A DNA stretch of 42,765 bases from Thermoanaerobaculia bacterium (lineage in GTDB: Bacteria > Acidobacteriota > Thermoanaerobaculia > UBA5066 > Gp7-AA6). The notes under the pieces are model-generated. The model searched no databases. It saw only the letters and a list, made by a program, of their open reading frames with translations, and was not told the DNA's origin. The number at the start of each line of letters is the position of its first letter. Position 1 is the stretch's first letter. Where the stretch lies: the NCBI GenBank assembly GCA_033853815.1, contig JAWOLE010000257.1:1-42765 (forward strand), in the 5' to 3' direction. The position numbers were made by a program, and so were the translations under genes. Shown in pieces: positions 9,793 to 40,377 of this stretch.

Positions 9793-9888
9793 AATCGGAT
9801 CATTGACTCATTGAATCATTGGTTGATTGCGGCTTATCAAATGGGGCAATGAGTCAATGGATCAATGGACCAATGGGTCAATGGGTCA
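9793..9888. repeat. inverted tandem octamer array (3x CATTGNNT, spacer, 6x ATGRNTCA)
   Basis: Left arm 9801-9824, right arm 9841-9888. Reverse complement of the left arm matches the right arm exactly over 13 nt (CAATGAGTCAATG). The TGA stop of the TPR gene (9886-9888) is the end of the last unit. Confidence 0.9.
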
Positions 9889-12294
9889 ATTCTTGTGCGC
9901 TGCCTCGAGTTCCTTGACCCGCTCGGCGACGTCGCGGTACTTGGTGTCGAGACCGTAGACCTCGACGAAGGTCCTGTAGGCGTTCTCCGCGTCCCCGGTG
10001 GATTGGTAGACGCAGGCCAGGTCGTAGAGAAGGCCGACGGTCTCCGCCTCCTTGATGCCGGGAGTCTCGAGCCCCTTGCGGTACCACTTGACGGCGAGCT
10101 GGGGCATCCCCTTCTCCAGGAAACAGAGACCCAGCATGCTGCAGCATTCGACGGCGCGTTGCGGGTCCTTGCTCGCGAGCTGGAATTCCCCGATCGCCTC
10201 GTCGATCAGTCCCATCTCCTTGTAGGCGATGCCGAGATTCGAGTGCGTCTCGTAATCCTCGGCCGAGAGCTGCTGCTCGACCCCCTTCTTGAACTCGCGG
10301 AAGATCTCCTCGAGCGAGACTTCCCCTTCCGGTCCGGACATCTCGGGGGCCTCCGACGCCGCGGGAGAGTCGGCCAGCTCCTTTTCCATTTCATCCGCCA
10401 GATTGAAGAACCGCTGCTCGTCGGCGAAGAGGCTCTGGCCGTCCACCGCGGGCGCGGCTTCGATGGGAGCGGCCGACTTCCCGCCCGCCTTGCGCATCTC
10501 CTCGTCGATCAAGGATTCCAGGCCTTCGGAGGAGATGAGCTCGGAGTCCGCATCCTCGAGCCGGGGGGGAGGGGCCGCGGGGGCGAGGCCCCGGGCACCC
10601 CTGCCGGCCGGCGGAGCGAACACGAGCGGCGGCGGGCTTTCTCGCGGAGGCGGGATCGGCTCGGCTCCGAAATCGTCGAAGAATTCCGCGGAGGCCGCCG
10701 GGCGCGGCTCGACCGGAAATTCCTCGTACGCCTCGGCCGGGGGGGGCGGCGGCGCGGGCGGCGCGACGGACACTCCCAGCCTGGAAAGAACAGCCTCGGC
10801 CTTCTGCGGTTCGCCGCGTCGGCGATAGAAATCGGCGAAGGCCTCCGCTTCCTGGGCGAGCGCCGGATTGCTCGACGCCGCCATCAGCTCGAGCAGGCGC
10901 TCGCGGGCCGGGAAGAAATCGGGGTGATTGCGCGCGACCGTGCGAAGCCTCTCGACGGCTTTGTCGGTCAGGCCGTACCGGGAAAAGATCTCCGCCTCGA
11001 CGATGAGGGTTTCGAGCTCCCTCTGCTCGGGAACGGCCTGGGAGGGCGGGCCGCCCGCGGCCGGAGCCGCAGCGGGCGGAGCCCCGGCGGGACCCTCCTC
11101 GACATCGACGACGACCTCCTCCTCGGCCCCCGCCATGCCGGCGGTTCGCAGGAGCTCGGACAGGCGCGCCGCCGCCTCGGAGTCTCCGGGGGCGGCCGCC
11201 GCGGCGCGCCGATAGTTCTCGACGGCGGAGGCCAGGTCTCCCCTGCGCTCATCTTCGCGCGCCAGCGCCATGCGAAGCCGCGCCGCCTCGGCCGCGTTGC
11301 CCTCGGCCTCCCGGACCTCGGCCATCTTCTGAAGGGAATCCCGGTGCGCTTCTTCAATCTGCAGGATCATCGACAGGTAGCCGGCGGCCCGCGTGAAGTC
11401 CCCCGCGGCCGTCGCCGCGTCCACCAGCGGCGAAACGTCGGCGAGCGCGGCCTCGAAGTTCGCCTCCGCCAGATGGGCGCGGCACAGAGCCAGGCGGGCT
11501 CCCGTGTGCGCGTCGTCCAGAGCGACCGCCTGCTCGGCGCTCCGCACGGCCTCGGCCTTCTGTCCCAGCTCGATCTGCGCCTCGGCCATGAGCACCAGGC
11601 TGTCGGCCGTGCGCGGCGCCGCCTTCAGGATCGCCAGGGCCGCCGCCGGGTTCTTCTGGGACAGCAGCGAACGCACCAGCGTGTTGCGGGCCGCGGCATC
11701 CTGCGGGGACAGCTCGAGCGCCTTCTGGAAGACCGCCGCGGCTTCGTCCTCGGCGCCGCGCCGCAGGAGCATCGAGCCGACAAGGCCGTACTGCATGACC
11801 GCGTTGTCGAGCTGGTTGACGCTGCGATAGAGATCGGCGAGGCGGACCTGGATCTTCAGGTCGTTGGCGTCTACCGACACCATCTTCTTGTAGACCGCGA
11901 TGGCCTCTTCCGGCATGGTGTTCTTCTGGTAGTGGTCCGCCAGGACCTGATACTGCGTGCGGGCGTCCTGGACGAGCCCCTGCTTGGCGTACAGGTCGCC
12001 CAGCCGCTCATAGACCTCCAGACGCGCGGGGTCGATCTTGTTGATCTTCTTGTAGATCGCGATCGCTTTCAGGAAGAAACCGTCGACGGTGCAGACCTCC
12101 GCGATCCGCGTGAAGAAGGGGATCGAGTCCGGGGCGCGGTTGACGCGGACGTAGAGGTCGCCCACCTTGTTCAGGGTCGAGATGTCTCTCGGGTTCTCGT
12201 CGAGCACCCGCAGGTAGTCCTTCAGGGCATCGTCGAACCTGCCCCTGGCGATGTGCTTTTCGGCGGAGCGAAGCAGTTGGTCGCGCGTTGGCAC
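9886..12294 (-). CDS. large TPR-repeat protein with central Pro/Ala-rich linker
   Basis: About 802 aa from GTG 12294 (VPTRDQLLRSAEKHIARGRFDDALKDYLRVL). TPR-like helices occur at both ends and a low-complexity segment (PPAPPPPPAEAYEEFPVEPRP) in the middle. ORF sequence upstream of 12294 overlaps rnhB in another frame and is not credible. Confidence 0.75.
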   Translation of the reverse strand: MPTRDQLLRSAEKHIARGRFDDALKDYLRVLDENPRDISTLNKVGDLYVRVNRAPDSIPFFTRIAEVCTVDGFFLKAIAIYKKINKIDPARLEVYERLGDLYAKQGLVQDARTQYQVLADHYQKNTMPEEAIAVYKKMVSVDANDLKIQVRLADLYRSVNQLDNAVMQYGLVGSMLLRRGAEDEAAAVFQKALELSPQDAAARNTLVRSLLSQKNPAAALAILKAAPRTADSLVLMAEAQIELGQKAEAVRSAEQAVALDDAHTGARLALCRAHLAEANFEAALADVSPLVDAATAAGDFTRAAGYLSMILQIEEAHRDSLQKMAEVREAEGNAAEAARLRMALAREDERRGDLASAVENYRRAAAAAPGDSEAAARLSELLRTAGMAGAEEEVVVDVEEGPAGAPPAAAPAAGGPPSQAVPEQRELETLIVEAEIFSRYGLTDKAVERLRTVARNHPDFFPARERLLELMAASSNPALAQEAEAFADFYRRRGEPQKAEAVLSRLGVSVAPPAPPPPPAEAYEEFPVEPRPAASAEFFDDFGAEPIPPPRESPPPLVFAPPAGRGARGLAPAAPPPRLEDADSELISSEGLESLIDEEMRKAGGKSAAPIEAAPAVDGQSLFADEQRFFNLADEMEKELADSPAASEAPEMSGPEGEVSLEEIFREFKKGVEQQLSAEDYETHSNLGIAYKEMGLIDEAIGEFQLASKDPQRAVECCSMLGLCFLEKGMPQLAVKWYRKGLETPGIKEAETVGLLYDLACVYQSTGDAENAYRTFVEVYGLDTKYRDVAERVKELEAAHKN

Positions 12295-12437
12295 TGACGG
12301 AAATTCTAACCCGGATGGTCCCTGGAAACCCGGCGCCCGAGGCCTCTCAGAGCTCGAGAGGAAGCTTCTCCGCGCGGAAAACGGCTCCGCCGCTGGCCTG
12401 GAAGCGGGCACGGCCGGCCTCTCGAAGGCCAGGGCGT

Positions 12438-13277: not shown

Positions 13278-13313
13278 TCGGCCGCCGTTCGCGAAGCGAA
13301 TGCCTGCGGCCGA
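13278..13313 (-). repeat. REP-like GC hairpin element (copy R2)
   Basis: On the minus strand it reads TAA-CAG-TCGGCCGC-AGG-CATTCGC-TTC-GCGAACG-GCGGCCGA. The element and the 3-nt CAG offset from the stop codon are the same as copy R1. Confidence 0.75.
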
Positions 13314-13316
13314 CTG

Positions 13317-13766: not shown

Positions 13767-13929
13767 GGTGTCAGGTTTCGAGGTTTGAGGTTTCAGGTTC
13801 GAGGTGTCAGATGAAACGCAGGTGTCAGGTTTCAGGTGTCAGGTGCCAGGGCAGCTACGCTTTATCGCTCTCGTCCCTGAAACCTGACACCTGGCACCTG
13901 CATTTCCCTGAAACCTCTGCCCTGACACC
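13767..13929. repeat. inverted tandem heptamer array (10x GGTKTCA, 29-nt spacer, 7x TGAMACC)
   Basis: Left arm 13767-13848 with one 11-nt interruption. Right arm 13878-13929 abuts the trmD TAA (13930-13932) with no gap. Confidence 0.9.
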
Positions 13930-14637
13930 TTATCCATTATCTTCACCCTCTTCCTCCGGCCGAAGAACCAGCAGATCCGGCCGCCTTCTCTTCGTCGCCT
14001 CGAGGGCGTGCGCCCGTCTCCAGCGCTCGATGCGGGCGTGGTCTCCGGAGAGGAGGACTTCGGGAACGGTCAGCCCGCGGAACTCCCGGGGCCGCGTGTA
14101 ATGGGGATGGTCGAGCCTGTGGGCGACGAAAGACTCCCTCTGGACGGACTCGGCGCGGGACACGACTCCCGGCACCAGGCGCGACAGCCCCTCGACGATC
14201 GCGAGCGCCGCCGATTCCCCTCCCGGCAGCACGAAGTCCCCGAGCGAGATCTCCTGATCGAAGAGCCCGAGCTCGCGGGACCGTTCATCGAGCCCCTCGT
14301 AACGCCCGCAGAAGAGCAGCAGCCGGTCGCGGCGGGCGAGATCCGAGAGCATCGCCTGGTCGAGCCTCGCTCCGTCCGGCGTCAGGAGCACGGACCAGGC
14401 CGGAGGATCTCCCCGGCGCGACTCGACGGCCGCCGCCACGACCGGGACCATCAGGACCATCCCCGGTCCTCCTCCATAGGGCTCGTCGTCCACCTTGTGG
14501 TGCTTGTCCTCGGAGAACTGCCTCAGGTCGGTGACCGTCACCTCCAGCAGGCCCGCGGAGATCCCCTTGCCGAGGAGGCTCTCGGCCAGGGGAGATTGGA
14601 AGTATCCCGGGAAAATCGTGAGGATCTCGATCTTCAT
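13930..14637 (-). CDS. trmD: tRNA (guanine37-N1)-methyltransferase
   Basis: MKIEILTIFPGYFQSPLAESLLGKG..., 235 aa, conserved rimM-trmD-rplS order. Confidence 0.95.
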   Translation of the reverse strand: MKIEILTIFPGYFQSPLAESLLGKGISAGLLEVTVTDLRQFSEDKHHKVDDEPYGGGPGMVLMVPVVAAAVESRRGDPPAWSVLLTPDGARLDQAMLSDLARRDRLLLFCGRYEGLDERSRELGLFDQEISLGDFVLPGGESAALAIVEGLSRLVPGVVSRAESVQRESFVAHRLDHPHYTRPREFRGLTVPEVLLSGDHARIERWRRAHALEATKRRRPDLLVLRPEEEGEDNG

Positions 14638-14655: not shown

Positions 14656-15291
14656 CTATAGCTCCATCAACCCTTCGGGAGGATCGAGGACGATCCGCCT
14701 CGAGGCGCGGTCGACCGCCACCACGATCGGGCGGACGAAGGGAACGAGCACTTCCCTGCCGCCGGGAGTCCCGAGCGTAAGCTGGCCCCCGGCGGCGGTC
14801 TGCTCGAGCCGCTTCACGGTCCCGAGAGGTTGGCCTGAAAGATCCTCGCACGACCAGCCTTCCAGTTCATGGCTCCAGTAGAAATCCTCGGGCCTCCGCG
14901 GAAGGCGGTCTGCGGGGAGACAGAGGACCCCGCCGGAAAGTCGATCGGCCTCTTCGCGATCCTCGATCCCCTCGAAGGAAAGAAGAAGACGTTTGCCGTG
15001 GGGACGCTTTGACGAAAGGGTCAGTTCGCGGACCCTCGCGCCCGCAATCCAGAGAAGTGTTGCCCCGGGTTCGAAAGGATCCGGAGAGTCCCCCAGGCGT
15101 TCAACGGAAAGCTCGCCTGCGACACCGTGAGGGCGCCACACAAAGCCGACGGCCAGAGGGCGGGACGGCAGTTCTTCTGGTTTAGTCGTACTCAGGTACC
15201 GGGAGCAACCCGGCTGCAAAGCGGCAATCTGCGATTTGTGAAGTGTGATTTGTGAATTGGGCGCGCAGGATCGTCTCGGCCCGGTCCGCAA
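14656..15291 (-). CDS. rimM: 16S rRNA processing protein RimM (start uncertain)
   Basis: LAVGFVWRPHGVAGELSVERLGD... PRC-barrel C-terminus. Position is conserved. In-frame starts are TTG 15291 and TTG 15219. The first ~30 codons of the maximal ORF run through the heptamer array and are probably not coding. Confidence 0.8.
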   Translation of the reverse strand: MRTGPRRSCAPNSQITLHKSQIAALQPGCSRYLSTTKPEELPSRPLAVGFVWRPHGVAGELSVERLGDSPDPFEPGATLLWIAGARVRELTLSSKRPHGKRLLLSFEGIEDREEADRLSGGVLCLPADRLPRRPEDFYWSHELEGWSCEDLSGQPLGTVKRLEQTAAGGQLTLGTPGGREVLVPFVRPIVVAVDRASRRIVLDPPEGLMEL

Positions 15292-15324
15292 TCACCAATC
15301 GCAGATCGCAGATCGCAGATCTCT
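15228..15324. repeat. inverted tandem heptamer array (4x TYTGYGA, spacer, 5x RATCRCA)
   Basis: Left arm 15228-15255 (tctgcga tttgtga agtgtga tttgtga). Right arm 15290-15324 (aatcacc aatcgca gatcgca gatcgca gatctct). It ends 1 nt from the TGA of the KH gene. Confidence 0.85.
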
Positions 15325-15325
15325 C

Positions 15326-15589
15326 TCAGTCGCGGATCCGGATGTTGACACGCTTGCCGCGGGCGGAAGCCGCCGCCCCCACGAACGCGCGCAGAGCGCG
15401 GACGGTGCGCCCCTCACGACCGATCAGGCGCCCCCGATCGGCCTCGGGCACCGTCACTTCGTAGAGCGTGCCCCGGCCCTCGGAGATCTCGACAACACGC
15501 GTCTCGGCCGGACGCTCGGACAGCCGGCGGACGATGGTCTCGACCAGCCGCTTGAGAGGCGCCCCGTCGGGAACGCGATCGCCGCTCAT
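15326..15589 (-). CDS. KH-domain RNA-binding protein (YlqC/UPF0109)
   Basis: 87 aa with GRLIGREGRTVRALRAFV (KH GXXG loop). Conserved slot between rpsP and rimM. ATGA-type overlap with the rpsP stop. Confidence 0.85.
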   Translation of the reverse strand: MSGDRVPDGAPLKRLVETIVRRLSERPAETRVVEISEGRGTLYEVTVPEADRGRLIGREGRTVRALRAFVGAAASARGKRVNIRIRD

Positions 15590-17324: not shown

Positions 17325-17352
17325 TTGACAGGAGGGGCCGTTGCGATATGAT
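17325..17352 (+). promoter_or_regulatory. near-consensus sigma70-type promoter (TTGACA-16 nt-TATGAT)
   Basis: TTGACA at 17325-17330 and TATGAT at 17347-17352, about 75 nt upstream of the lipoprotein ATG in the ffh/lipoprotein divergent spacer. Confidence 0.5.
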
Positions 17353-17426
17353 GCGGCGTCGTTTTCTCCCCTTACGGGGATTTTTTCGCGTACTGGGGGG
17401 CTGAGAAGAAAAAGGAGATGAGGGAT

Positions 17427-17717
17427 ATGAAGAAGTTCGTGACCCTGGGCCTCGCTGCCGTGCTGGGTACGGCGCTCGTCACCGGTTGCCAGAAGAAGGA
17501 AACCACGGAAACCACCACAACGTCGACGGAACAGCAGCCGGCGGTCGTGCAGGAGACCGGGACCACGGCCACCTCCACGATGACCACGACAGAGACCGGC
17601 ACGACCGGGATGGCCATGACCGGTACGGAGACCACCGGAACGACGGGCACGATGGCGCCATCGACGACCACGACCTCGACGGCGACGACCTCGACCGAAA
17701 CCAAGAAGAAGATGTAG
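17427..17717 (+). CDS. small Thr-rich lipoprotein
   Basis: MKKFVTLGLAAVLGTALVTGC lipobox, then about 75 residues dominated by T/E/G/S. SD AAGGAG lies 9 nt before ATG 17427. The ATG at 17418 directly abuts the SD. Confidence 0.7.
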   Translation: MKKFVTLGLAAVLGTALVTGCQKKETTETTTTSTEQQPAVVQETGTTATSTMTTTETGTTGMAMTGTETTGTTGTMAPSTTTTSTATTSTETKKKM

Positions 17718-17740
17718 GTCGTCTTTCCCGGAAAGAGAAG

Positions 17741-17770
17741 AAGGCCCCTCGCGGGGCCTTTTTCATTTTT
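17741..17770 (+). terminator. intrinsic terminator
   Basis: AAGGCCCC-TCGC-GGGGCCTT stem-loop followed by TTTCATTTTT, 24 nt after the lipoprotein stop. Confidence 0.8.
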
Positions 17771-17779
17771 CGGCGACTT

Positions 17780-17948
17780 TCGGCCGCCCCCGTTCGCTTC
17801 GCGAAGGCGGCCGAGAGTTTCAAGACCGGAGTTCTCCGCTGTGTCGTACTCGCCGTCGCGACCTTCGGCCGCAGGCGTTCGCTTCGCGAACGGCGGCCGA
17901 GAGTTTCAAAACCGGAGCTCTCCTCTGTGTCGTACTCGTCGCCGCGCT
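17780..17948 (+). repeat. tandem duplication of an ~85-bp REP-like unit (copies R3, R4)
   Basis: Units at 17780-17863 and 17865-17948. Each has a TCGGCCGC..CGTTCGC-TTC-GCGAA(C)G-GCGGCCGA hairpin plus the tail GAGAGTTTCAARACCGGAGYTCTCCKCTGTGTCGTACTCG. Confidence 0.85.
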
Positions 17949-27747: not shown

Positions 27748-27807
27748 GTGCGAAGTTCGAAGGACAGGGGTGTTCAACCTTGAACCTGGAACTTCGAACC
27801 TCGCACC
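27733..27807. repeat. inverted tandem heptamer array (4x GRTKCNA, spacer, 5x TNGMACY)
   Basis: Left arm 27733-27760 contains the IDH TAG (27745-27747). Right arm 27773-27807 contains the candidate trmB TTG (27780). 27747-27760 pairs with 27794-27807 at 13/14 positions. Confidence 0.8.
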
Positions 27808-28382: not shown

Positions 28383-28457
28383 ACGTCAAACGTTAAACGT
28401 AGCTCGGACGGCCACGATTTACGTTTTACCTTTTACGTTTTACGGCTTCGGCTTCGG
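28374..28457. repeat. inverted tandem heptamer array (4x AAACGTN, 16-nt spacer, 4x TTTACSK) plus 2x CTTCGG
   Basis: Left arm 28374-28401 includes the last two codons and TAA of trmB. Right arm is 28418-28445. It lies between the convergent trmB and pgsA stops. Confidence 0.9.
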
Positions 28458-29080: not shown

Positions 29081-29162
29081 GATCAGTTTCTTCTCGCGGC
29101 TCACGGCTTGCGGCTCCCGACGGTCATAATAGCGCCATGCACCGCTGCGGGACCGGCCGGCG

Positions 29163-30599
29163 TTGATCCCCGGTTTTCCTCTGGGTACCGACGGCTGGCG
29201 CGGCGTCATCGCCGATGGCTGCACGTTCGGGGCGATCCGGCGCGTGGCCGGCGCGGCTGCCGCCGTCTATTCCGGCCTGACGGAGGGAGACCGGAGCCGC
29301 ATCCTCGTCGGCTACGACACCCGGTTCCTCTCGCCGGAACTCGCGCGGGCTGCGGCCGAGGTCTTCGCGCGGGCCGGGATCTCGGTCCTGCTCTCCGACC
29401 GCCCGATCCCGACCCCCGCCGTCTCCTTCTCGGTGCGGCGGCTCGGCCTCGCCGGAGGGATCGCGATCACGGCGAGCCACAATCCGGCCGAATACAACGG
29501 CGTCAAGATCAAGGCCCGTTTCGGATCGAGCGCCCCTCCCGAGCTCTACGAGAGGGTGGAACGCGCTGCCGCCGCCCCTCCCCCGGCGGGCTCCCGGCCG
29601 GCGGAGATCCGCGCCTGCGATCTTCTCTCCCCCTACCGCGACCGGCTGGCATCGCTCGTTCGCCTGGACGCGGTCCGGGCGGCCGGGCTCTCGGTGCTGG
29701 CCGACTCGATGCACGGCGCCGCGGGGACCCTGCTCTCCGATATCCTCGCCGGGGGGCGGACGCGCGCCGTCGGCTTCCGGGCGGAGCGAGACGCGCTCTT
29801 CGGAGGCGTCCACCCCGAACCGATCGCGTCGAACCTGACGGCGGCTTCCGAGCGGCTTCGTTCCTCGGGGTGCAGCCTGGCGGTGGCGCAGGACGGCGAC
29901 GCGGACCGCCTGGGAGTCCTCGATCGAAAGGGCGGGTTCGTCTCGCCTCACCGGGTGCTCGCGCTGCTCCTGCTCCACGCTTTCCGCCGCCGCGGCCTGA
30001 GCGGCGGCATCGCCCGGACGTTCTCGACGTCGCTCCTGATCGACCGCGTGGCTTCGGCGCTCGGCGCCCCCCTCCACGAGACGCCGATCGGCTTCAAGTA
30101 CGTCGCGGAGTTGATGAACAGAGGGGTCGTGGTCGCTGGCGGAGAGGAGAGCGGGGGCTACGCTTTTGCGTTCCACCTGCCCGAGCGGGACGGGGTCTTC
30201 AACGCCCTGCTCCTGATCGAGAGCCTCGCGGTCAGCGGGCAGGGTCTCGACGAAGCGCTGGCCGGCCTCGCCGCCGAGTTCGGCTCCTTCGCCTACGGCC
30301 GGCGCGACGTCTATCTTCCGGTGCCCGTGATCCGGGAGTTTCTGGCCGAGGTCGAGAAGGACCCGCCGGAGAGCGCGGCCGGACAGACGGTCACCGAAGT
30401 CCGGAACCTGGACGGCGTGAAATACCTCTTCGGCGAGCGCGGCTGGCTCCTCCATCGCCTCTCGGGCACCGAGCCGATGATCCGCCTCTACTGCGAGCAC
30501 GAGGAAGAGGCGGCCGTGGAGAAGGTCCTCGAGGAGGCCGAAGCGCGCTTACGGAAGTTTGCGGCCAAGAGAGGCGGCCAGGGACCGTCGTCATCCTGA
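29163..30599 (+). CDS. phosphoglucomutase/phosphomannomutase family protein (alpha-D-phosphohexomutase)
   Basis: Active-site TASHNPAEYNG, metal loop AQDGDADR, sugar loop GGEESGG. TTG start at 29163. Confidence 0.9.
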   Translation: MIPGFPLGTDGWRGVIADGCTFGAIRRVAGAAAAVYSGLTEGDRSRILVGYDTRFLSPELARAAAEVFARAGISVLLSDRPIPTPAVSFSVRRLGLAGGIAITASHNPAEYNGVKIKARFGSSAPPELYERVERAAAAPPPAGSRPAEIRACDLLSPYRDRLASLVRLDAVRAAGLSVLADSMHGAAGTLLSDILAGGRTRAVGFRAERDALFGGVHPEPIASNLTAASERLRSSGCSLAVAQDGDADRLGVLDRKGGFVSPHRVLALLLLHAFRRRGLSGGIARTFSTSLLIDRVASALGAPLHETPIGFKYVAELMNRGVVVAGGEESGGYAFAFHLPERDGVFNALLLIESLAVSGQGLDEALAGLAAEFGSFAYGRRDVYLPVPVIREFLAEVEKDPPESAAGQTVTEVRNLDGVKYLFGERGWLLHRLSGTEPMIRLYCEHEEEAAVEKVLEEAEARLRKFAAKRGGQGPSSS

Positions 30600-30658
30600 G
30601 CGCAGCGAAGGATCTGCCCGGGTTCAATCGCGGGAGCAGATCTTTCGTCGCTTCGCTC
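30598..30658. terminator. long imperfect hairpin between convergent genes (candidate bidirectional terminator)
   Basis: GAGCGCAGCGAAGGATCTGC (30598-30617) pairs with GCAGATCTTTCGTCGCTTCGCTC (30636-30658). It overlaps the TGA of the mutase gene and ends 1 nt before the stop of the convergent gene. Confidence 0.5.
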
Positions 30659-30659
30659 C

Positions 30660-31829
30660 TCACACGCGGGGGGTCTTCGGTCCTTCCGTCAGCACGACGC
30701 CTTCGCCTTCGAAGCGCAGCCGGGGGGCGTTGCCGGCGTCGGGCAGCATGATGTCTTCCAGGAACCGATCCTCCACGACGGAGGGGAGAAGCTCACCGGT
30801 CCACGCCACGAGATCCCTGGAAGAGACCGTCAGGGGAAAATCGGGCGCCACGTCATGGGCCTCGAGCGGCCCCGACACCGACACGACCGCGCCGCCGCGG
30901 CCCCGAACCTTCAGGACGTCCATCCGCCGGTGCGTCCGGAAATCCTGGATGGGCTCCAGGCGGAACTGGAGGGCGCTCGCGAGGGCGACCACGCGCCCGC
31001 CTTCGAGGTGGAGGGACTGCCCGCCCGCCTCCCGGACGACGCACCGGCCCGCCGGGTCGCAGAGGAGCAGGTCGCCCGTCCCTTCGGCCTTCACGAGGCG
31101 TTCCAGCCGCGTGCCGGCAAACGCCGACTCCTCGGAGAAACGCAACCGGCCGCTGTACCAGACGACCGACCCTCTGCGCACGTAGACGAGCCCGCGCGAG
31201 GCGACTTCCAGGGTCCCGTCCGCGACGGCCCGGAAGAGAGGCCGGTCCTCGGCGTCGCGGCGCGCCGAGGAGGCGAACGAGACGGCCGGCGACTCCGGAG
31301 CGGGTCGGACCGGCTCGGGCGGGGGCACGGCCGAAAGCGTCGTCGGAGGCGTCCGCGAGAGCGTTTCCTCGATTTCTGCGGCGACCCCGCGGGCGCCGCC
31401 GCGGCGCAGCTCGGCGAGCGCGGGGCGAAGCTTTCCACGCATCCGATGGACGAGCCCGAGATAGAGATGACTGCGGGCATGATCGGGCTTGAGCGCGATC
31501 GCGCGCTCGAACTGCCGCTCCGCCTCGTCCAGCGCTCCGGTCTTCAGCAGGATGAGCCCCAGGTTCGCATGCAGGATGGCGGAATCGGGATTGGCTTCGA
31601 GAAGGGCTCGCGCGGCTCTCGCAGCCTCCCCATAGTCGCCGCGACGGAACTCGACGAGCGAGACGAGGCTCAGGAGGTCCGGGTCGGCCGGCCGCACGAG
31701 GCTCGCCAGCTCCAGCTCCTGCCGGGCCTCCTCGAGACGACCGGCGCCGAGAAGCGCGCGCGCGCGGCCCAGGTGGAGGAAGAAGACGGCCTGATCGAGC
31801 GAGGGATCGCCGCCGGCCGCTCGCGGCAT
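30660..31829 (-). CDS. TPR-repeat protein with C-terminal AIM24-like beta domain
   Basis: N-terminal TPRs (GRLEEARQELELA.., GDYGEAARAARALLEANP, GALDEAERQFERAIALKP). The C-terminal ~210 aa is beta-rich with AIM24/DUF124-like segments (GSVVWYSGRLRF, LLLCDPAGRCVV, GGAVVSVSGPLEA). The domain call is tentative. Confidence 0.7.
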   Translation of the reverse strand: MPRAAGGDPSLDQAVFFLHLGRARALLGAGRLEEARQELELASLVRPADPDLLSLVSLVEFRRGDYGEAARAARALLEANPDSAILHANLGLILLKTGALDEAERQFERAIALKPDHARSHLYLGLVHRMRGKLRPALAELRRGGARGVAAEIEETLSRTPPTTLSAVPPPEPVRPAPESPAVSFASSARRDAEDRPLFRAVADGTLEVASRGLVYVRRGSVVWYSGRLRFSEESAFAGTRLERLVKAEGTGDLLLCDPAGRCVVREAGGQSLHLEGGRVVALASALQFRLEPIQDFRTHRRMDVLKVRGRGGAVVSVSGPLEAHDVAPDFPLTVSSRDLVAWTGELLPSVVEDRFLEDIMLPDAGNAPRLRFEGEGVVLTEGPKTPRV

Positions 31830-33072: not shown

Positions 33073-35777
33073 GGTGCCGCGTCCGCCTCCGACAGCATCT
33101 CGCGCACGGCGGCCTCGGCTTCCTTCAGAGCTCCCGGAAGGAGGCTTTCGTTTCTCCCTCCGGCCTGGGCGAGATCGGCCTTGCCGCCGCCGCTTCCCCC
33201 GAGCGCTTTTCCGATCCGGGCGGCGATCCGGGAGGCCGGAAGGCGCCCGGTCAGGTCCGGCGTGACCGCCGCGACGACGGAGGTCCTCCCCTCCCGGGAG
33301 GTGCCGACGACGACGACCCCGCTCGCGAGCCTGGCGCGGAGGGTGTCGGAGAGATTCCGCAGCTCGGGAATCGAGAGCCCCTCCGCGATCCGCGTGACGA
33401 GCCGGACTCCGTCGACATCCACGGTCCCACCGGAGGCGCCGGCGTCGCCCGAAGCGAGCTTCAGTTTCAGCGACGCCACCTCGCGCTCGAGGGACTTCAA
33501 ACGCTCCTCCCGTTCCCGCCAGCGCTCCAGCAGCTTCTCGCGCGGGCTCTGCGCGGCTCCCGAGAGGGCGTTCAGCGTCTCCTCATCTTCGCCGAGCAGC
33601 TCCACCGCGCCGAGCGAGGTCACGGCCTCGAGACGGCGCACGCCCGCGGCGAGGCCACGATCCGAGACGATCTTGAAGGCCCCGATCTCCCCCGTGCGGG
33701 GGACGTGGCAGCCGCCGCAAAGCTCGGTCGAGAAGCCGGGCACGTCCACCACGCGGACCCTCTCCCCGTACTTCTCGCCGAAGAAGGCGATGGCCCCCTT
33801 CGCACGCGATTCCTCCATGCTCATGTATTCCTTGGTCACGGCGGTGTCGCGCAGGATCTCCTCGTTGACGAGCCGCTCGATCTCGGCGATCTGGCCGGGA
33901 GTCGGCGGGACCGTCGCCGCGTAGTCGAAGCGCAGGCGGTCGGGCGCGACGAGCGAGCCCATCTGCCGCGCCAATTCCCCCAGGACCCGCCGCAGCGCGG
34001 CATGGAGCAGATGGGTGCCGGTGTGATTGGCCTGTGTCCGCCGGCGGATCCACTCGGGGACCTCCATGTCCACTTTCGTCCCGGCGGAGAGGACGCCCTT
34101 GCGGACCGTGACGCGGTGCGCGATCAACCCCGGAACCGGCTTCCGTGTATCGGTGACCTCCGCTTCGCCTCCCGGCCAGCGCCAGGTGCCGGTGTCGGCC
34201 ACCTGGCCCCCGCCTTCCGGGTAGAAGACCGTCCGGTCCGTCACGACCTCGCCCGACTGCCCGGCGGACAGATCCCGCGCGGGCGCGCCGTCGCGGACGA
34301 TGCCGAGGACGGCCGCGCCCGAGAGGCGGCAGAAGTCGAGCTCGGGGTAGCCGCGAAACTCCGAGTGCTCGGGAGGCAGCCGCAGACCCTCGTAGACCGA
34401 GGCGTCGGCGGCCTGGAACTTCGCCCCCGCCCGCGAGGCCGCGCGCTGCTTCTCGAGATTCTCCTCGAATCCCGCGTGGTCCACCGAGAGCCCCTCGTCG
34501 GAGGCGATCTCCTCGATGACTTCGAGCGGGATCCCGTAGGTGTCGTAGAGGCGGAAGACGGCCTCGCCGGGAAGGGCCCTCTCCCCTCGCCGGCGGAGCG
34601 ACTCGATCGACTCCCCCACCCGGTCCGCGCCAACCGACATGGTCCGGGCGAAGCGCTCCTCCTCGGCCCGCAGCGTCTGGCCGAAAAGTATATCGACATT
34701 GATATAGTGAGACGCGTCGAGGCCGTAGCGGCCCTCGCCGAGCCGCCGGACGTAGACCCCGTCGAAGATATCGAGGACGACCGGCGCCAGCCGGTAGAGG
34801 ACGGGCCCCTCGATCCCCAGATGCCGGGCGTAGCGCAGCGCGCGCCGGATGATCCGCCGCAGCACGTACCCGCGCCCCTCGTTGGAGGGCAGGACGCCGT
34901 CGGCCATGAGCATCGCGGTGGAGCGGGCGTGGTCCGCGAGGACCCGGAACGGAGCGTCCTCGACCACCATGTTCCCCGTGTAGGAGCGCCCGGAGATTTC
35001 CTCGATCTTCGCCAGGATCGGGCGGAAGAGGTCGGTGTCGAAGTTGTTGTTGACCCCCTGGAGGACAGCGGTCAGCCGCTCCAGGCCCATCCCCGTGTCC
35101 ACGGAGGGCTTGGGGAGAGGCGTCATCGCGCCCGTCGCGTCGCGCTCGAACTGCATGAAGACGAGGTTCCAGACCTCGACCGTGTCGTCTCCCGGACCGT
35201 TGACGAGCTCGGCGCGATTCCGAGAAAGATCTCTTCCCTGGAAATAGTGGATCTCCGAACACGGGCCGCAGGGCCCGGTCTCCCCCATCGCCCAGAAATT
35301 CTCCGATTCGCCGAAGCGGAGGATCCGCCCGGCCGGCAGGAACCGCTCCCAGAGCCGCGCGGCCTCGTCATCCTCGGTGAAGACGGTCGCCCAGAGGCGC
35401 TCCGGTTCGAGGCCGTACCCCTCTTCTCTGTCCGTCAGCAGCTCCCATCCATACCGGATGGCCTCGTCCTTGAAGTAGTCGCCGAAGGAGAAGTTGCCGA
35501 GCATCTCGAAGAAGGTCAGGTGGCGGCCGGTGTAGCCCACGTTGTCGAGGTCGTTGTGCTTTCCCCCGGCGCGCACGCACTTCTGCGCGCTCGCGGCCCG
35601 GCTGTAGTCGCGCTTCTCGCGCCCCGTGAAGACGTCCTTGAACTGGTTCATCCCGGCGTTGGCGAAGAGCAGCGTCGGATCCTCGGCCGGGATCAGGGAG
35701 GAGGAGGGAACGCGGCGGTGCCCCCGCTTCCCGAAGTACTCGAGGAACCTCTCCCGGATCTCACTGGATGTTTTCAC
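33063..35777 (-). CDS. alaS: alanine--tRNA ligase
   Basis: 904 aa from GTG 35777 (VKTSSEIRERFLEYFGKRGHRRVPSSSLIP..LLFANAGMNQFKD). Editing domain HTGTHLLH..CGGCHV. C-terminal DHHA1. The GTG overlaps the recX TGA as GTGA. Confidence 0.95.
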   Translation of the reverse strand: MKTSSEIRERFLEYFGKRGHRRVPSSSLIPAEDPTLLFANAGMNQFKDVFTGREKRDYSRAASAQKCVRAGGKHNDLDNVGYTGRHLTFFEMLGNFSFGDYFKDEAIRYGWELLTDREEGYGLEPERLWATVFTEDDEAARLWERFLPAGRILRFGESENFWAMGETGPCGPCSEIHYFQGRDLSRNRAELVNGPGDDTVEVWNLVFMQFERDATGAMTPLPKPSVDTGMGLERLTAVLQGVNNNFDTDLFRPILAKIEEISGRSYTGNMVVEDAPFRVLADHARSTAMLMADGVLPSNEGRGYVLRRIIRRALRYARHLGIEGPVLYRLAPVVLDIFDGVYVRRLGEGRYGLDASHYINVDILFGQTLRAEEERFARTMSVGADRVGESIESLRRRGERALPGEAVFRLYDTYGIPLEVIEEIASDEGLSVDHAGFEENLEKQRAASRAGAKFQAADASVYEGLRLPPEHSEFRGYPELDFCRLSGAAVLGIVRDGAPARDLSAGQSGEVVTDRTVFYPEGGGQVADTGTWRWPGGEAEVTDTRKPVPGLIAHRVTVRKGVLSAGTKVDMEVPEWIRRRTQANHTGTHLLHAALRRVLGELARQMGSLVAPDRLRFDYAATVPPTPGQIAEIERLVNEEILRDTAVTKEYMSMEESRAKGAIAFFGEKYGERVRVVDVPGFSTELCGGCHVPRTGEIGAFKIVSDRGLAAGVRRLEAVTSLGAVELLGEDEETLNALSGAAQSPREKLLERWREREERLKSLEREVASLKLKLASGDAGASGGTVDVDGVRLVTRIAEGLSIPELRNLSDTLRARLASGVVVVGTSREGRTSVVAAVTPDLTGRLPASRIAARIGKALGGSGGGKADLAQAGGRNESLLPGALKEAEAAVREMLSEADAAPGP

Positions 35778-36262
35778 GATTCGCCGTCGTCTCCATCCCG
35801 GCGGGGAGCCTCGCGGGCCCGCGCCGTCCAATCCTTCATCTTCGCAGAAATCGCGGCCGCGGAAAAACCTCGCCTCGAGAGCGCGTCCCGGATCCGCCGC
35901 CGGCGCGTCTCCGGGGAGAGGCCGGCGCGGGACCGCCGCAGCCTCTCGAAGGCCCGCGACAGGGCCCGCGCCTCCGTCTCGGGCTCCAATCCCGAGAGCG
36001 CCTCCGCGATCGTTTCCTCCGAGAAGCCGCGGGCGGAGAGCTCCCGGCGGAGGCGCTCCCGGCCGTAGCGCCCCTCGCGCGCCGCGACGGCCGAGCGCGC
36101 CGCGGCGAGGTCGTCGAGCCAGCCTTCCCGCTCCAGGCGCGAGAGGGCCCCGGAAACGGCTCCGCGGTCGAAGCCGCGCCGCTCGAGGGCTCGCGCGAGC
36201 TCGGCCCGGCCGCGTGAGCGGACCGCCAGCAGTGTGAGCGCCCGCTCTCGCGCCGCGGAGAC
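35774..36262 (-). CDS. recX: RecX-like regulatory protein; start codon unresolved
   Basis: The open frame translates SAARERALTLLAVRSRGRAELARALERRGFDRGAVSGALSRLEREGWLDD...LRRELSARGFSEETI...IRDALSRRGFSAAAI, i.e. three RecX helical repeats. The only ATG/GTG/TTG in frame is TTG 35989, mid-protein. CTG lies at 36232. An in-frame TAG sits in the heptamer array upstream. Confidence 0.6.
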   Translation of the reverse strand, partial: VSAARERALTLLAVRSRGRAELARALERRGFDRGAVSGALSRLEREGWLDDLAAARSAVAAREGRYGRERLRRELSARGFSEETIAEALSGLEPETEARALSRAFERLRRSRAGLSPETRRRRIRDALSRRGFSAAAISAKMKDWTARAREAPRRDGDDGES

Positions 36263-36307
36263 CGAGTCAGGCTGTGCGGTTTTTCGAACGCGCCGGGACG
36301 GTGGGGT

Positions 36308-36349
36308 CGTCTGCCGTCTCCCGTCTACCGTCTACCGTCTACCGGGTCT
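36308..36349. repeat. direct tandem heptamer array (6x CGTCTNC)
   Basis: cgtctgc cgtctcc cgtctac cgtctac cgtctac cgggtct abuts the pilT TGA (36350-36352). There is only a short partial inverted partner (CGGGACGG at 36294-36301). Confidence 0.85.
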
Positions 36350-37534
36350 TCAGCGCGCGCCGCGCGGTTGCCTGGAAAAGTCGAGGGGCGCTTCTTCGAC
36401 CGAATGGAAGTCCGACGGCTCTTCCAGCGCGGCGTCCATCTCCTCCCGGGCGATGTCGGAGGTGGACTGGATGCCCTGGACCTTCAGCCGGAACTCGTTG
36501 GGGTTCGAGGCCTGCTTGAACGCTTCCTCGAGCGTGATCAGGTCGGACTTGTAGAGCTGATAGAGAGACTGGTCGAAGGTCTGCATGCCGTACTGCGACG
36601 TCCCCTGCTTGATCGCGTCCGGGATGTACTTGGTCTTTTCCTTGTTCTCGATGCACTCGCGGATGTATTCGGTGGCGACCAGGACCTCCACGGCCGGGAC
36701 GCGGCTCAAGCCGTCGGCCCGTGGCATCAGGCGCAGCGAGATGACCGCCTTCAGGACGGCGCCGAGCTGCAGCCGGATCTGCCGGTGCTGGTGCGGCGGG
36801 AAGAGGGTGATGATGCGGTTGACCGTCTCGGTCGCGTCCAGGGTGTGGAGGGTCGAGAGCACGAGGTGGCCCGTCTCGGCGGCCGTCAGCGCGGTGGCGA
36901 TCGTCTCCACGTCCCGCATCTCGCCGACCAGGATCACGTCCGGGTCCTGCCGGAGCGCGCTCCTCAGGGCCGTCGAGAAGGCGCGCGTGTCCACGTCGAG
37001 CTCGCGCTGGTTGACGATCGACTTCTTGTCCCGGTGCAGGTACTCGATCGGGTCCTCGATCGTCAGGATGTGCTCGTTTCGCAGCGTGTTGATGTGGTCG
37101 ACCATCGACGCGAGGGTGGTCGTCTTGCCCGAGCCGGTCGTCCCCGTGCAGAGCACGAGGCCGCGCGGCTCCATGCTGATGCGCTCGAGCACGGGGGGCA
37201 GGAGCAGCTCCCGGATCGTCAGGATGCGCGTCGGGATGACGCGCAGGACGAGTCCGACGGTGCCGCGCTGTAGGAAGATGCTGCAGCGGAAGCGCCCCAG
37301 GTTGGGCACCTGGTAGGAGGTGTCGATCTCGTAATCGGTCTTGAACCTCTCCTTCTGCCGCGCCGACATGATCGAGAACGCCATGGCGACGGTGTCTTCC
37401 TGCAGGAGCCGCCGCATCTCGCTCAAGGGCTTCAGGACGCCGTCGATGCGCAGCACGGGAAAGGCACCCACCTTCAGATGGAGGTCCGACGCTTTGCGGT
37501 CCACCGCCACCTTCAGGAGATCGTTGATGTGCAT
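36350..37534 (-). CDS. pilT: type IV pilus retraction ATPase PilT family
   Basis: 394 aa. Walker A GTTGSGKTTT, Asp box, Walker B DPDVILVGEMRD, His box LVLSTLHT, AIRNLIRE-like YIRECIENKE. Confidence 0.9.
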   Translation of the reverse strand: MHINDLLKVAVDRKASDLHLKVGAFPVLRIDGVLKPLSEMRRLLQEDTVAMAFSIMSARQKERFKTDYEIDTSYQVPNLGRFRCSIFLQRGTVGLVLRVIPTRILTIRELLLPPVLERISMEPRGLVLCTGTTGSGKTTTLASMVDHINTLRNEHILTIEDPIEYLHRDKKSIVNQRELDVDTRAFSTALRSALRQDPDVILVGEMRDVETIATALTAAETGHLVLSTLHTLDATETVNRIITLFPPHQHRQIRLQLGAVLKAVISLRLMPRADGLSRVPAVEVLVATEYIRECIENKEKTKYIPDAIKQGTSQYGMQTFDQSLYQLYKSDLITLEEAFKQASNPNEFRLKVQGIQSTSDIAREEMDAALEEPSDFHSVEEAPLDFSRQPRGAR

Positions 37535-37577
37535 GGGTTTAGCTTACGCTTGGAGCGGTGCTATTGGAAGCGGGGAA

Positions 37578-37664
37578 AGTCCTTGGTCCTTGGTCCTTAG
37601 TCCTGAGTCCAAGCTCGTATGAGATCCGACCAAGGACTAAGGACTAAGGACTAAGGACTTTTCC
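37578..37664. repeat. inverted tandem heptamer array (5x RGTCCTK, 17-nt spacer, 5x CYAAGGA)
   Basis: Left arm 37578-37612, right arm 37630-37664. About 26 of 30 positions pair. The right arm runs into the ilvE TAG (37664-37666). Confidence 0.92.
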
Positions 37665-38602
37665 TAGACCCGGGCTTCCACGGGCACCGGCGTCAGCCAG
37701 CCGTACCGATCCTCCGCCTGGCCGGAGAGGAGGGCGAAGAAGTCCTTCTGGAGCCTCTCGGTGACCGGGCCGCGCCTGCCCGAACCGACCACGACCCGGT
37801 CGACGGACCGGATGGGGGTGATCTCCGCGGCCGTCCCCGTGAAGAAGATCTCGTCGGCGATATAGAGCATCTCGCGGGCGATCTGCTGCTCGACCACCTT
37901 GTACCCGGCGTCCCGCGCGATCGTCAGGACGGAATCCCGCGTGATGCCGGGCAGGATGGTGCCGGCCAGCGGAGGCGTCAGGATCCTGCCTCCGTAGACC
38001 AGGAAGATGTTCTCGCCGCTCCCCTCGGAGATCCGCCCGCTGCTGTCGAGCGCGATGCCTTCCGTGTAGCCGTTGGTGATCGCCTCCATCTTGATCAGCA
38101 TCGAGTTCAGATAGTTCCCGCTCGCCTTCGCCATCGCGGGGAAGGTGTTGGGCGCCATACGGTTCCAGGAGGACACGCAGACGTCCACCCCCTGCTCGAT
38201 CGCCTCCTCGCCCAGGTACTTGCCCCATTTCCACACGGCCACGATCACGTCGACCGGGCTCTTGAAGGGGTTGACGCCGAGCGCCCCCAGTCCGCGGTAC
38301 ACGAGCGGGCGGATGTAGCAGTCCTCGAATCCGTTGGCGCGGATCGTGTCGAAGATCGCGCTCTTGAACTCCTCCGGGGAGTAGGGGATCTCCATCCGGT
38401 AGACCTTGCAGGAGTCGTAGAGCCGCTTGATGTGCTCGTCCAGCCGGAAGGCGACCGAACCGTTGCGAGTCTTGTAGAGGCGCGCGCCTTCGAAGATCCC
38501 CGAGGCGTAGTGGAAGACGTGGGAAAAGGCGTGGATCTTCGCGTCGGCAAAATCCACGAGCCGGCCGTTCATCCAGACTTTCTTGACGTCTTCGTAGGAC
38601 AT
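37664..38602 (-). CDS. ilvE: branched-chain amino acid aminotransferase
   Basis: 312 aa. FEGARLY, class IV aminotransferase motifs [44 protein letters not shown] precedes the ATG. Confidence 0.95.
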
Positions 38603-38676
38603 GCGACCTCCGCGTTGGTGGGAAGCGATCGCGGGTCCGAGCGAGTATCCCCTGAGGGGAAAGCGGTGTCAATCGG

Positions 38677-38782
38677 CAACGTCAGCCGTGAAACGTCAAA
38701 CGTAAACCGTTAAACGAAGCCTCCTCACCTCTGCACCTCCGTTTTTCGTTTTACGTTTTACGTTTTACGTTTTACGTTTTGC
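38677..38782. repeat. inverted tandem heptamer array (6x AAACGTN incl. 2 degenerate, 22-nt spacer, 6x GTTTTNC)
   Basis: Left arm 38677-38718, right arm 38741-38782. The rsmE TAA (38772-38774) and its last three codons lie inside the right arm. Same heptamer family as 28374-28445. Confidence 0.9.
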
Positions 38783-39494: not shown

Positions 39495-40291
39495 TCTCCT
39501 TCCGTGCGCCGGCCGGAGAGTCCCCAGCGGCGGGAGCGCAGGCGCGCGAGCAACTCCTCCTCACGCTCGGCGGGGATTCCGGACAGGATCAGCCGGCCGC
39601 CGGGAGCGACGCGGCCGAGGACCGCGCCTCGAGCCCGAAGGAATTCCTCGGGCAGCAAATTCGCGACGACGAGCGGAAAGGCCCGCGAGATCGTCTCCGC
39701 CGTCCCCGCGAAGAGCGGGACGCGGGAGGCAAACGGGTGCAGTCGAAGGTTCTCCCGGGCGACGAAGACGGCCTCCGTATCCGTGTCGAAGGCGAAGGCG
39801 CGCCGCGCCCCGAGAGCGGCCGCGGCGAGCGCGAGGACTCCCGAACCCGTGCCCACGTCGAGAACGTCGAGCCCGGAGGGAGGGTCCTCTTCCAGGCACA
39901 GCAGCGCGAGGCGCGTGGATTCGTGGCCTCCGGTTCCGAAGGCGGCCGAGGCGGGGAGCCGCAGCGCGATGCGGCCGGCGGGAGGCTGAGAGTCCGACGG
40001 GTCGCCCGGATCGATCCAGAAGCGCTCGCCGACCGCGAAGGGACGCGAGGCGGCACGGAAGGCGCGGAAGGGATCGTCTTCCGGGATGTCCGTGACCAGG
40101 TCGCAGCGCAGGCGAGCGGCCGAGAGCGCCCGGCTCGCGCCACGGGCATCCTCCGCTTCTCGAAAGCAGGCGACGAGATCGCGCCCTTCCTCCACGAACC
40201 CGAGCGGTCCGTAGAGGGACAGGATGCCGACGACGGCGTCGTCCCTCGCCTTGCGCGGGACGACCAGGCGCGAATATTTCCGCCGGGCCAT
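39461..40291 (-). CDS. prmA: ribosomal protein L11 methyltransferase
   Basis: FGTGGHESTRLAL, VLDVGTGSGVLALAAAALGA, AFDTDTEAV. ATG 40291 is preferred; GTG 40330 is the maximal ORF. Confidence 0.85.
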   Translation of the reverse strand: MARRKYSRLVVPRKARDDAVVGILSLYGPLGFVEEGRDLVACFREAEDARGASRALSAARLRCDLVTDIPEDDPFRAFRAASRPFAVGERFWIDPGDPSDSQPPAGRIALRLPASAAFGTGGHESTRLALLCLEEDPPSGLDVLDVGTGSGVLALAAAALGARRAFAFDTDTEAVFVARENLRLHPFASRVPLFAGTAETISRAFPLVVANLLPEEFLRARGAVLGRVAPGGRLILSGIPAEREEELLARLRSRRWGLSGRRTEGDWVCLCLARVS

Positions 40292-40342
40292 CAGTTCGTG
40301 AGGCTCGAGGCATGAGGCGTCAGGCGACACACGGACCCTGCC

Positions 40343-40377
40343 TTACGGCTCACGTTTACGGCTTACGCCTTACGGCT
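40343..40377. repeat. direct tandem ~7-nt array (5x TTACGSC-like)
   Basis: ttacggc tcacgtt tacggct tacgcct tacggct ends 8 nt before the dnaJ TGA (40386-40388). No inverted arm is evident. Confidence 0.7.

Follow-up and report, generated by a model that had tools for sequence, protein, structure and literature searches.

What the short tandem repeats in the intergenic spacers of a Thermoanaerobaculia bacterium (Acidobacteriota) are, how they arise and whether they act on transcripts are the questions raised by contig JAWOLE010000257.1 (GenBank assembly GCA_033853815.1), of which positions 1–42,765 are here called the window. Ten spacers between positions 9,793 and 40,377 carry tandem arrays of 7- or 8-nt units, most of them followed by an inverted second arm, and an earlier note on this DNA was not aware of any described element with their combination of features. 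The arrays are neither mobile elements nor one conserved RNA, and very probably are heptamer (rarely octamer) simple sequence repeat (SSR) hairpins that are generated locally, change by slippage and have co-evolving arms. The overall best explanation, to which we assign a probability of roughly 0.5, combines this local origin with a role of the hairpins as stem-loops at transcript 3′ ends.

Scanning of the window with Tandem Repeats Finder (TRF), together with direct reading of each locus, recovered period-7 or period-8 tandem arrays at all ten loci (10/10), as the earlier note had listed them. At a uniform threshold (at least three copies and a score of at least 34), the window contains 16 period-7 and three period-8 arrays, against respective means of 0.07 and 0.2 in thirty dinucleotide-preserving shuffles of the window, and no excess over the shuffles was found for periods 5, 6, and 9–12; the array excess is confined to periods 7 and 8 and is statistically overwhelming. 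The arrays are AT-enriched (43–55% GC vs 68% for the window), and all ten of them, like the arrays of relatives described below, lie in spacers and at most overlap the last codons of an open reading frame (ORF). Eight unit families are distributed over the ten loci (A1–A10), with only two recurrences: CAATGAnT is common to A1 and A4, and AAACGTn to A6 and A9. The proposal that each locus has its own unit must be relaxed to that extent, whereas its corollary, that the arrays are not copies of one mobile element, stands. A scan of the window against Rfam 15 returned no matches at the gathering score. Two weak heptamer arrays absent from the earlier list were also seen, TCCCGGC (3.3 copies; 8789–8811) at the oppD/oppF junction and CTCGCGG (3.4 copies; 29093–29116) near the divergent pgsA/PGM region.

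Neighboring genes were assigned by family scans of the window proteins. At five loci the stop codon of the upstream gene lies inside the array or its first arm. A1 (9792–9892, − strand) is an 8-mer array hairpin (TTGAyCCA ×6 / CAATGAnT ×4) between a TPR (SgmX-like) gene and oppD, in which the TGA stop of the TPR gene (9886–9888) falls within the first unit and the oppD ATG (9778–9780) follows 12 nt past the last unit. A4 (26603–26742, + strand), also an 8-mer array hairpin (ATTGATCC ×5.6 / CAATGAnT ×8.5), connects a CNNM/GldE-like gene, the TGA stop of which (26605–26607) is in the first unit, to icd, the ATG of which (26728; MSQS...) is in the last units. The next junction, from icd to trmB, holds the GTTCGAn-type hairpin A5 (27727–27810, + strand), with the icd TAG stop (27745–27747) in arm 1 and, in arm 2, the probable trmB start (TTG, 27780), which is the only canonical start available to that gene. 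Between the convergent trmB (+) and pgsA (−) genes, the AAACGTn / ACGTTTT hairpin A6 (28370–28457) includes the trmB stop (28380–28382) in arm 1, and the pgsA stop is at 28460–28462. A9 (38678–38782, − strand; AAAACGT ×5.9 / CGTTTnA ×5.6), between rsmE and ilvE, encodes the rsmE TAA stop (38772–38774) plus the last two rsmE codons, and the ilvE promoter (TTGACA-17-GATACT, 38672–38644) lies 5 nt past its end.

The remaining five arrays, all on the − strand, begin close behind the upstream stop. A2 (13767–13929), a 7-mer array hairpin of GGTGTCA/GGTTTCA and its complement between trmD and rplS, begins 0 nt from the trmD stop (13930–13932) and is followed by a promoter-like site for rplS (−35 TTGGTT, 13766–13761; −10 TATACT, 13742–13737), the −10 region of which is conserved in the two nearest metagenome-assembled genome (MAG) loci, L001 and L002. 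The 7-mer hairpin A3 (15224–15321) lies between a KH-domain gene (stop 15326–15328) and rimM, and its arms have expanded unlike units, ATCTGCG (×3) in one and TTTGTGA (×3) in the other. A8 (37573–37664; AGTCCTT ×4.6 / AGGACyA ×4.7), between ilvE and pilT, begins 4 nt after the ilvE stop (37664–37666) and ends just before the −35/−10 pair of a conserved pilT promoter (−35 TTCCAA, 37569–37564; −10 TAAGCT, 37546–37541). The two single-arm arrays are A7 (36308–36344; GTAGACG ×3, GGAGACG, GCAGACG), which begins 6 nt after the pilT stop (36350–36352) and supplies in its last unit the probable ACG start of recX (36310–36308), and A10 (40343–40377; GCCGTAA / ACGTGA units), which begins 9 nt after the dnaJ stop (40386–40388), upstream of prmA. 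All ten arrays thus begin 0–10 nt from the upstream stop, as had been noticed, and the association is tighter than claimed at the five loci where the stop is internal. The genes flanking the arrays are not those assumed earlier: they include rsmE, recX, and trmB, and promoters of rplS, ilvE, and pilT lie behind arrays. Because conserved promoters follow A2, A8, and A9, at least these three lie at transcription-unit boundaries, not inside co-transcribed operons as had been proposed.

Inverted arms of 29–44 nt, 71–88% complementary, are present at eight of the ten loci, as the earlier note had described, and were not found at loci 36308 (A7) and 40343 (A10). RNA folds were computed on the gene strand, with z-scores taken against 200 dinucleotide shuffles. 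The eight two-armed loci gave z-scores of −2.35 to −7.96 (A1, −4.84; A2, −6.54; A3, −3.94; A4, −4.38; A5, −3.61; A6, −3.06; A8, −7.96; A9, −2.35), with long stems interrupted by single-base mismatches at regular spacing, and the single-arm arrays folded no better than shuffles (A7, −0.19; A10, −0.51), so that in the window the predicted folding was borne out at the eight two-armed loci. A PGM gene (+) and a TPR/AIM24 gene (−) converge on a spacer that is filled by an ordinary non-repeat hairpin (30598–30660; z −4.21), which serves as a comparator. Among 25 two-armed arrays, within-arm unit identity and between-arm complementarity are both 0.87; because the two are equal, although units differ wholly among lineages, the arms co-evolve. 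A3, where each arm amplified another segment, suggests independent slippage on an older hairpin. In L002, a GTGACGA array behind the KH gene (9308–9420) is complementary to the first rimM codons (CTCGTCGGTCTCGTG), which indicates that the pairing partner of an array can sit inside downstream coding sequence.

The same phenomenon was found in relatives. TrmD of the window has 78% identity to that of two Acidobacteriota MAGs and 70–73% to those of Thermoanaerobaculia MAGs, and both of the nearest MAG loci (L001 and L002) carry 7-mer arrays with other units. At the junction from the KH gene to rimM the unit is ATCTGCG in the window, ATTTCGA in L001 (where the array stops 1 nt short of the rimM ATG), and GTGACGA in L002. 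At the junction from the TPR gene to oppD, the gene end AAGAATTGA is kept in all three; the window and L002 have the unit CAATGAnT in common, with unequal copy numbers, and in L002 the TPR-gene stop lies in the first unit and the oppD ATG in the last, whereas L001 has GATTTGY paired with AAATCAC. Period-7/8 arrays were not found in 40 loci (563 kb) of other phyla; they are present in further Acidobacteriota loci, and in those of Alistipes/Rikenellaceae they are very frequent. In the latter (L052–L077; e.g., L065, 3826–19749), intergenic heptamer arrays are dense, with up to 16 in 20 kb, draw on a handful of recurring units (GTTTTCC, GCTAATG, ATTTTGC, AATTGAC, and CTCCTAT) and are often concatenated rather than inverted, which makes the repeat landscape of these Bacteroidota related to the present one yet distinct from it.

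Eighty further loci (L081–L160; 81–90% identity) came from scanning metagenomes with IlvE, and all of them (80/80) keep the gene order dnaK-dnaJ-prmA-rsmE-ilvE-pilT-(recX)-alaS. An exact match to the IlvE protein of the window, sought as a sign of the same strain elsewhere, was not on record. The comparative spacer set comprises 198 unique sequences from five junctions, of which 61 carry arrays; period 7 accounts for 76 of the 92 TRF arrays in this set. The comparison of orthologous spacers that the earlier note had called for shows that, from lineage to lineage, a given junction holds a heptamer array with unrelated units, another structure (a plain GC-rich hairpin, a T-run hairpin, or a REP-like element), or nothing. 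The CGTRAGC unit family of A10 is present at the dnaJ-prmA junction in several relatives.

Position relative to gene ends was measured in the 61 array-bearing unique spacers. The offset of the first array from the end of the stop codon has a median of −2 nt; the array begins within 10 nt of the stop in 45/61 and overlaps the stop or the last codons in 32/61, while its distance to the next start codon has a median of 59 nt, and 55/61 arrays are nearer the stop than the start. Two-armed arrays in relatives end at conserved promoters. The arrays take up the whole free spacer, from the stop codon up to whichever −35 box or start codon comes next; because they reach both boundaries, and often supply the stop themselves, stop adjacency is largely an effect of space filling or overlap. 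The strict stop-codon adjacency stressed by the earlier note holds, but arrays also abut or contain downstream starts and promoters. In the ilvE-pilT spacers of L081–L160 the pilT promoter is conserved (−35 CTTCCAAT, −10 TAAGCT/TACCCT; window 37534–37570, − strand). The pilT ATG (37534) is only 6 nt past the −10 box in the window and its closest relatives, where pilT mRNA is therefore probably leaderless; distant relatives have a 20–30 nt leader. Among the rsmE-ilvE spacers of L088–L160, short ones have the rsmE TGA stop within the ilvE −35 box (cgTTGACAcc), and in another lineage a TAG stop lies within a TAGACT −10-like box.

The origin of the arrays can be read from their variation. Even where ilvE is at least 99% identical in nucleotide sequence, the spacers of different loci are set apart by exact 7-nt indels within arrays (ACACGGA, TTTCCCG, and GGAGTCC), which agrees with the ongoing slippage suggested by unequal arm copy numbers. 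When the last four coding nucleotides plus the stop codon are compared with the next heptamer, at least five of seven positions match in 31/198 spacers, vs only 2–3 spacers at control shifts of 5, 6, 8, 9, and 10 nt. Counted from the true stop, further stop triplets are seen at +7, +14, and +21 nt in, respectively, 19, 16, and 13 of the 61 array-bearing spacers, whereas other offsets give about one. Examples of such stop-seeded arrays in relatives are ‘GGTC TAA GGTCTAA AGTCTAA’, ‘ATTG TGA ATTGTGA AGTGTGA’, and ‘AACG TGA AACGTGA AACGTGA’; the RsmE tail ‘...RKT*’ is array-encoded in the window and in L090; and the A7 unit GTAGACG equals the ‘TAG ACG’ junction of the pilT stop and recX start in relatives. 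This phase-locking is partly automatic, since an ORF that enters an array with a stop triplet in its unit must end there; in L106, two array units precede the in-frame TAG.

We envisage that replication slippage in this acidobacterial clade amplifies 7-nt segments wherever the DNA tolerates amplification, and that the only such DNA would be the stretch from the stop codon to the next promoter or start codon. The seed would often be the heptamer that holds the stop codon itself, and as a seed of this kind contains the stop, the resulting array starts at the ORF end or extends across it, and can supply its stop. At the far end, arrays sometimes supply the start codon, Shine-Dalgarno sequence, or −35 box of the next gene. 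Arm complementarity persists through unit turnover, either because pairing is selected or because template switching copies one arm onto the other.

No literature on tandem repeats in Thermoanaerobaculia was found, but precedents elsewhere show that the arrays are a variant within the known intergenic heptamer SSR or STRR-like hairpins and not a new class. Short tandemly repeated repetitive (STRR) sequences of heterocystous cyanobacteria are 7-bp tandem repeats, one of which forms a hairpin between the co-transcribed genes hupS and hupL, and termination, transcript stabilization, or translational coupling have been put forward for such hairpins (PMC2670836). The likeness lies in tandem 7-bp non-coding units and in the capacity for hairpins, whether these separate neighboring or co-transcribed genes or lie close to the 3′ end of the upstream gene. 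STRR sequences, however, belong to a few unit families shared across a genome, whereas the window has its eight families at ten loci, orthologous junctions are unlike, and units derive from local stop-codon sequence; the host is not a heterocystous cyanobacterium but a member of the Acidobacteriota with 68% GC, the nearest relatives of which are Acidobacteriota/Thermoanaerobaculia MAGs.

The heptamers GGGAATC of Xanthomonas and GGGGA(T/C)T of Nostoc are approximately 90% intergenic, lie mostly between co-directional genes at an average of 28 nt to the upstream ORF vs 160 nt to the downstream one, in some cases overlap the stop, and in some cases form inverted pairs able to fold into stem-loops (Rehm et al., 2015, PMC4692102). 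These are likewise stop-proximal intergenic heptamer SSRs at mostly co-directional junctions, and one of those genomes is also high in GC, but a single dominant G-rich unit prevails per genome and has been discussed as a G-quadruplex former (PMC4692102), whereas the units here are diverse and AT-enriched, and in the window most loci have the paired inverted form. Long SSRs (LSSRs; units of 5–11 nt) were surveyed in 2007 and, as that survey is represented in later accounts, heptanucleotides are the commonest class in prokaryotes, are over-represented in non-coding DNA, and are ascribed to polymerase slippage (PMC4679880, PMC4692102). The window arrays, with head-to-tail units in at least three copies far above chance, correspond to this category in heptamer abundance and slippage; units that are not multiples of three are kept to non-coding DNA in the window and its relatives alike, and whole-unit copy number varies between close relatives. 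As far as those accounts convey it, the LSSR is a general survey category without hairpin pairing, stop-codon phase, or turnover at orthologous junctions.

TAACTGA direct repeats occur in marine Beggiatoaceae, cyanobacteria, and some Bacteroidetes (PMC4679880). These too form intergenic heptamer arrays, the forward repeats of which stop all three frames, so that arrays overlapping an ORF end it, and downstream genes often have no Shine-Dalgarno sequence; they differ in using a single unit, mostly just upstream of start codons, that is inverted in only 1/170 sets (PMC4679880). Geobacter metallireducens has paired tandem repeats, TCTCCGTS in three copies on opposite strands and MTYCTGA in five copies (PMC2700814), which resemble the present arrays in pairing short tandem units with opposite-strand tandem units at variable distance but have a consensus across 16–47 sites and were read as binding sites of a global regulator (PMC2700814). 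Repetitive extragenic palindromes (REPs) and bacterial interspersed mosaic elements (BIMEs), as well as U-tract-less (‘I-shaped’) terminators, place imperfect hairpins right after stop codons, operon interiors included, as the arrays do. In REPs, copies of a family have a consensus in common, and their spread is due to the REP-associated tyrosine transposase (RAYT). The array hairpins have no such conserved imperfect-palindrome consensus in many dispersed copies, their arms are tandem arrays, and their terminator activity is putative; in high-GC phyla, stems are typically long and not followed by a U-tract (PMC13613805). With precedents in the STRR of hupS-hupL, in Xanthomonas and Nostoc, and in G. 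metallireducens, the earlier suggestion of an undescribed element is not upheld. What distinguishes the present arrays is the diversity and local derivation of their units, the prevalence of paired over single arms in the window, direct evidence that gene ends are overlapped and redefined by arrays, and the host clade.

As for function, a role of the array hairpins as 3′-end stem-loops is put forward tentatively, at slightly below even odds. The transcript would fold into a long, regularly mismatched stem-loop right behind the stop codon; such a U-tract-less stem-loop could act as a pause site, terminate transcription in part and block 3′ exonucleases, and would insulate the upstream gene from the next transcription unit. 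Stem-loops up to approximately 128 nt from stop codons mark transcript 3′ ends, and those of high-GC species combine long stems with U-tracts that are short or missing (PMC13613805); in the window, a stable stem-loop lies within that distance at eight of the ten loci. The position behind the stop, the strong folding in the window, the promoters just downstream in three cases, and the interchangeability of ordinary and array hairpins at the same junctions are consistent with this role. Several results weigh against it. Sense-strand folding bias was not found (sense vs antisense, 25 vs 34 wins; p = 0.07), and neither was an asymmetry in G-U pairs (248 vs 258) that would be a strand-specific RNA signature. 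A scan for canonical terminators showed no enrichment and called none at the arrays; no array hairpin has a T-run, and the array stems are AT-enriched rather than the GC-rich stems of intrinsic (Rho-independent) terminators, although the window does contain a canonical terminator with a T-run (17737–17764). Only 16/38 array-bearing spacers of relatives have z < −2 (7/19 and 9/19), and 49/124 unique spacers at two junctions could not accommodate a hairpin. Arrays occupy 50/149 co-directional, 2/20 convergent, and 1/16 divergent spacers, tallies that come from a crude gene caller based on GC content at third codon positions and call for caution, as stop-to-stop ORFs run through arrays (the coding vs non-coding counts of the same caller were set aside as unreliable, and only the orientation tallies were used); the scarcity at convergent junctions is unlike what is expected of a pure terminator. 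The hairpins are also probably dispensable, since relatives hold plain hairpins or nothing at the same junctions.

That dispensability, and the quick turnover by which orthologous spacers hold arrays, other hairpins, or nothing, would fit a neutral by-product, in which microsatellite ‘weeds’ grow between the stop and the next promoter or start without any expression role and the hairpin shape comes from inverted duplication, quasi-palindrome template switching, or inherited old hairpins. The absent sense-strand bias, the unit-sized indels that separate near-identical strains, the independent amplification of unlike segments in the A3 arms, and the filling of spacers to both boundaries point the same way. 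We nevertheless consider this neutral reading unlikely, albeit a serious possibility: the equality of between-arm complementarity and within-arm identity needs selection or very frequent arm-to-arm copying, and spacers are otherwise so compact, with relatives' stops even overlapping a −35 or −10 box, that deletion bias should remove 100–160 nt of useless DNA. Translational coupling or occlusion would place the stop at the 5′ base of the hairpin and the downstream start in the 3′ arm, so that translation of the downstream gene would depend mainly on ribosomes that open the stem as they complete the upstream gene. The same idea was put forward for STRR hairpins (PMC2670836), and it would suit the arrays that carry both a stop and a start, namely A4 (icd), A5 (icd stop and probable trmB start), and the L002 TPR-oppD array, as well as the L001 array that ends 1 nt before the rimM ATG. 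This geometry fits only a minority of arrays, promoters follow A2, A8, and A9, A6 lies between convergent genes, and the downstream start positions are themselves inferred, which makes coupling an improbable general account. Still more doubtful is the far-reaching proposal of a self-renewing, clade-wide de novo builder of intergenic structure, in which junction-born heptamers would gain a mirrored second arm through a lineage-specific property of replication or repair and be kept as copy-number-tunable insulators or translational couplers, rewriting C-termini, stops, starts, and −35 boxes.

Two further functions are very improbable. The periodic recurrence of stop triplets at +7, +14, and +21, and the TGA, TAA, or TAG in many window units, might indicate a three-frame ‘backstop’ that catches frameshifted or read-through ribosomes in a stop-poor, GC-rich genome. 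Sense-strand stops are enriched only in arrays that overlap ORF ends (19/32), however; among non-overlapping arrays they occur in 13/49 vs a random expectation of 0.29, more of these have stops on the antisense strand, and eleven overlapping arrays have no stop in the consensus unit. The backstop was rejected, as phase-locking follows from overlap or seeding and not from selection for stops. Hypermutable contingency switches, in which copy number would tune or switch the expression of neighbors as in phase variation, accord with the copy-number polymorphism between near-identical strains and with the start codon, Shine-Dalgarno-like unit, or −35-like hexamer in some arrays. The neighbors are nonetheless housekeeping genes (ffh operon, icd, ilvE, dnaJ, and alaS), the arrays lie from the stop to the next −35 box rather than, as at phase-variable loci of surface or virulence genes, within the ORF or the −35/−10 spacing, and most lie upstream of a promoter or downstream of a stop, positions from which copy number affects neither the reading frame nor the spacing of the promoter. 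A mobile or dispersed family (REP/BIME, or miniature inverted-repeat transposable elements, MITEs) and an assembly artefact retain next to no probability. The location at gene 3′ ends is REP-like and the genome has a separate REP-like palindrome, but the mobile reading was rejected because the arrays have no common consensus (eight unit families at ten loci, and orthologues with other units) and their units derive from local stop-codon sequence; moreover, Rfam gave no match, and the arrays, of which no copies are shared between sites, do not fit the MITE pattern of terminal inverted repeats, target-site duplication, and identical copies at unrelated sites. The artefact, which the earlier note had wished to see excluded, was rejected because independent GenBank MAGs and dozens of JGI assemblies show arrays of this kind too; the arrays are also shorter than one sequencing read.

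Some neighboring features deserve record. The recX gene (35774–36331, − strand; Pfam RecX HTH1–3), between pilT and alaS and also present in L081–L160, has no ATG, GTG, or TTG upstream of its first domain, which is conserved. In the alignment, 27/36 unique related loci have ACG in the start column, the others having ATG, GTG, TTG, ATA, or ATC, and the ACG of several loci comes straight after the pilT stop (‘TAG ACG’, ‘TAA ACG’). From this alignment recX looks like a gene with a conserved, putative ACG initiation codon, possibly used by termination-reinitiation that keeps RecX levels low; no literature on a bacterial recX with an ACG start was found. The REP-like palindrome, GGCCGC-N5-TTCGCTTCGCGAA-N2-GCGGCC followed by TTTCAAA, is dispersed, with three matches in the window vs 0 expected: 1831–1862 (+), 13280–13311 (−), which sits 5 nt after the rplS stop, and 17867–17898 (+). 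An 86-nt tandem duplication (17773–17946) holds two REP-like copies. Beside ffh, a near-consensus promoter (TTGACA-16-TATGAT, 17325–17352) and the T-run terminator (17737–17764) bracket approximately 400 nt (17325–17764, +), which is a candidate small gene or RNA; a 99-aa ORF within it (17418–17717) has no Pfam match, and the region has no Rfam match.

If the array hairpins act on transcripts, they would give a GC-rich, largely uncultured soil phylum a route to mark gene ends without canonical terminators, by signals that can arise in situ from stop-codon sequence and are neither inherited nor borne by mobile elements. Even if neutral, the arrays offer a clear example from nature of gene boundaries being reshaped by microsatellite dynamics, in which repeats supply stop codons, last protein residues, start codons, and promoter hexamers; they lead to gene-calling errors in MAGs, because predicted ORFs run on through them, and they are potential strain-level markers.

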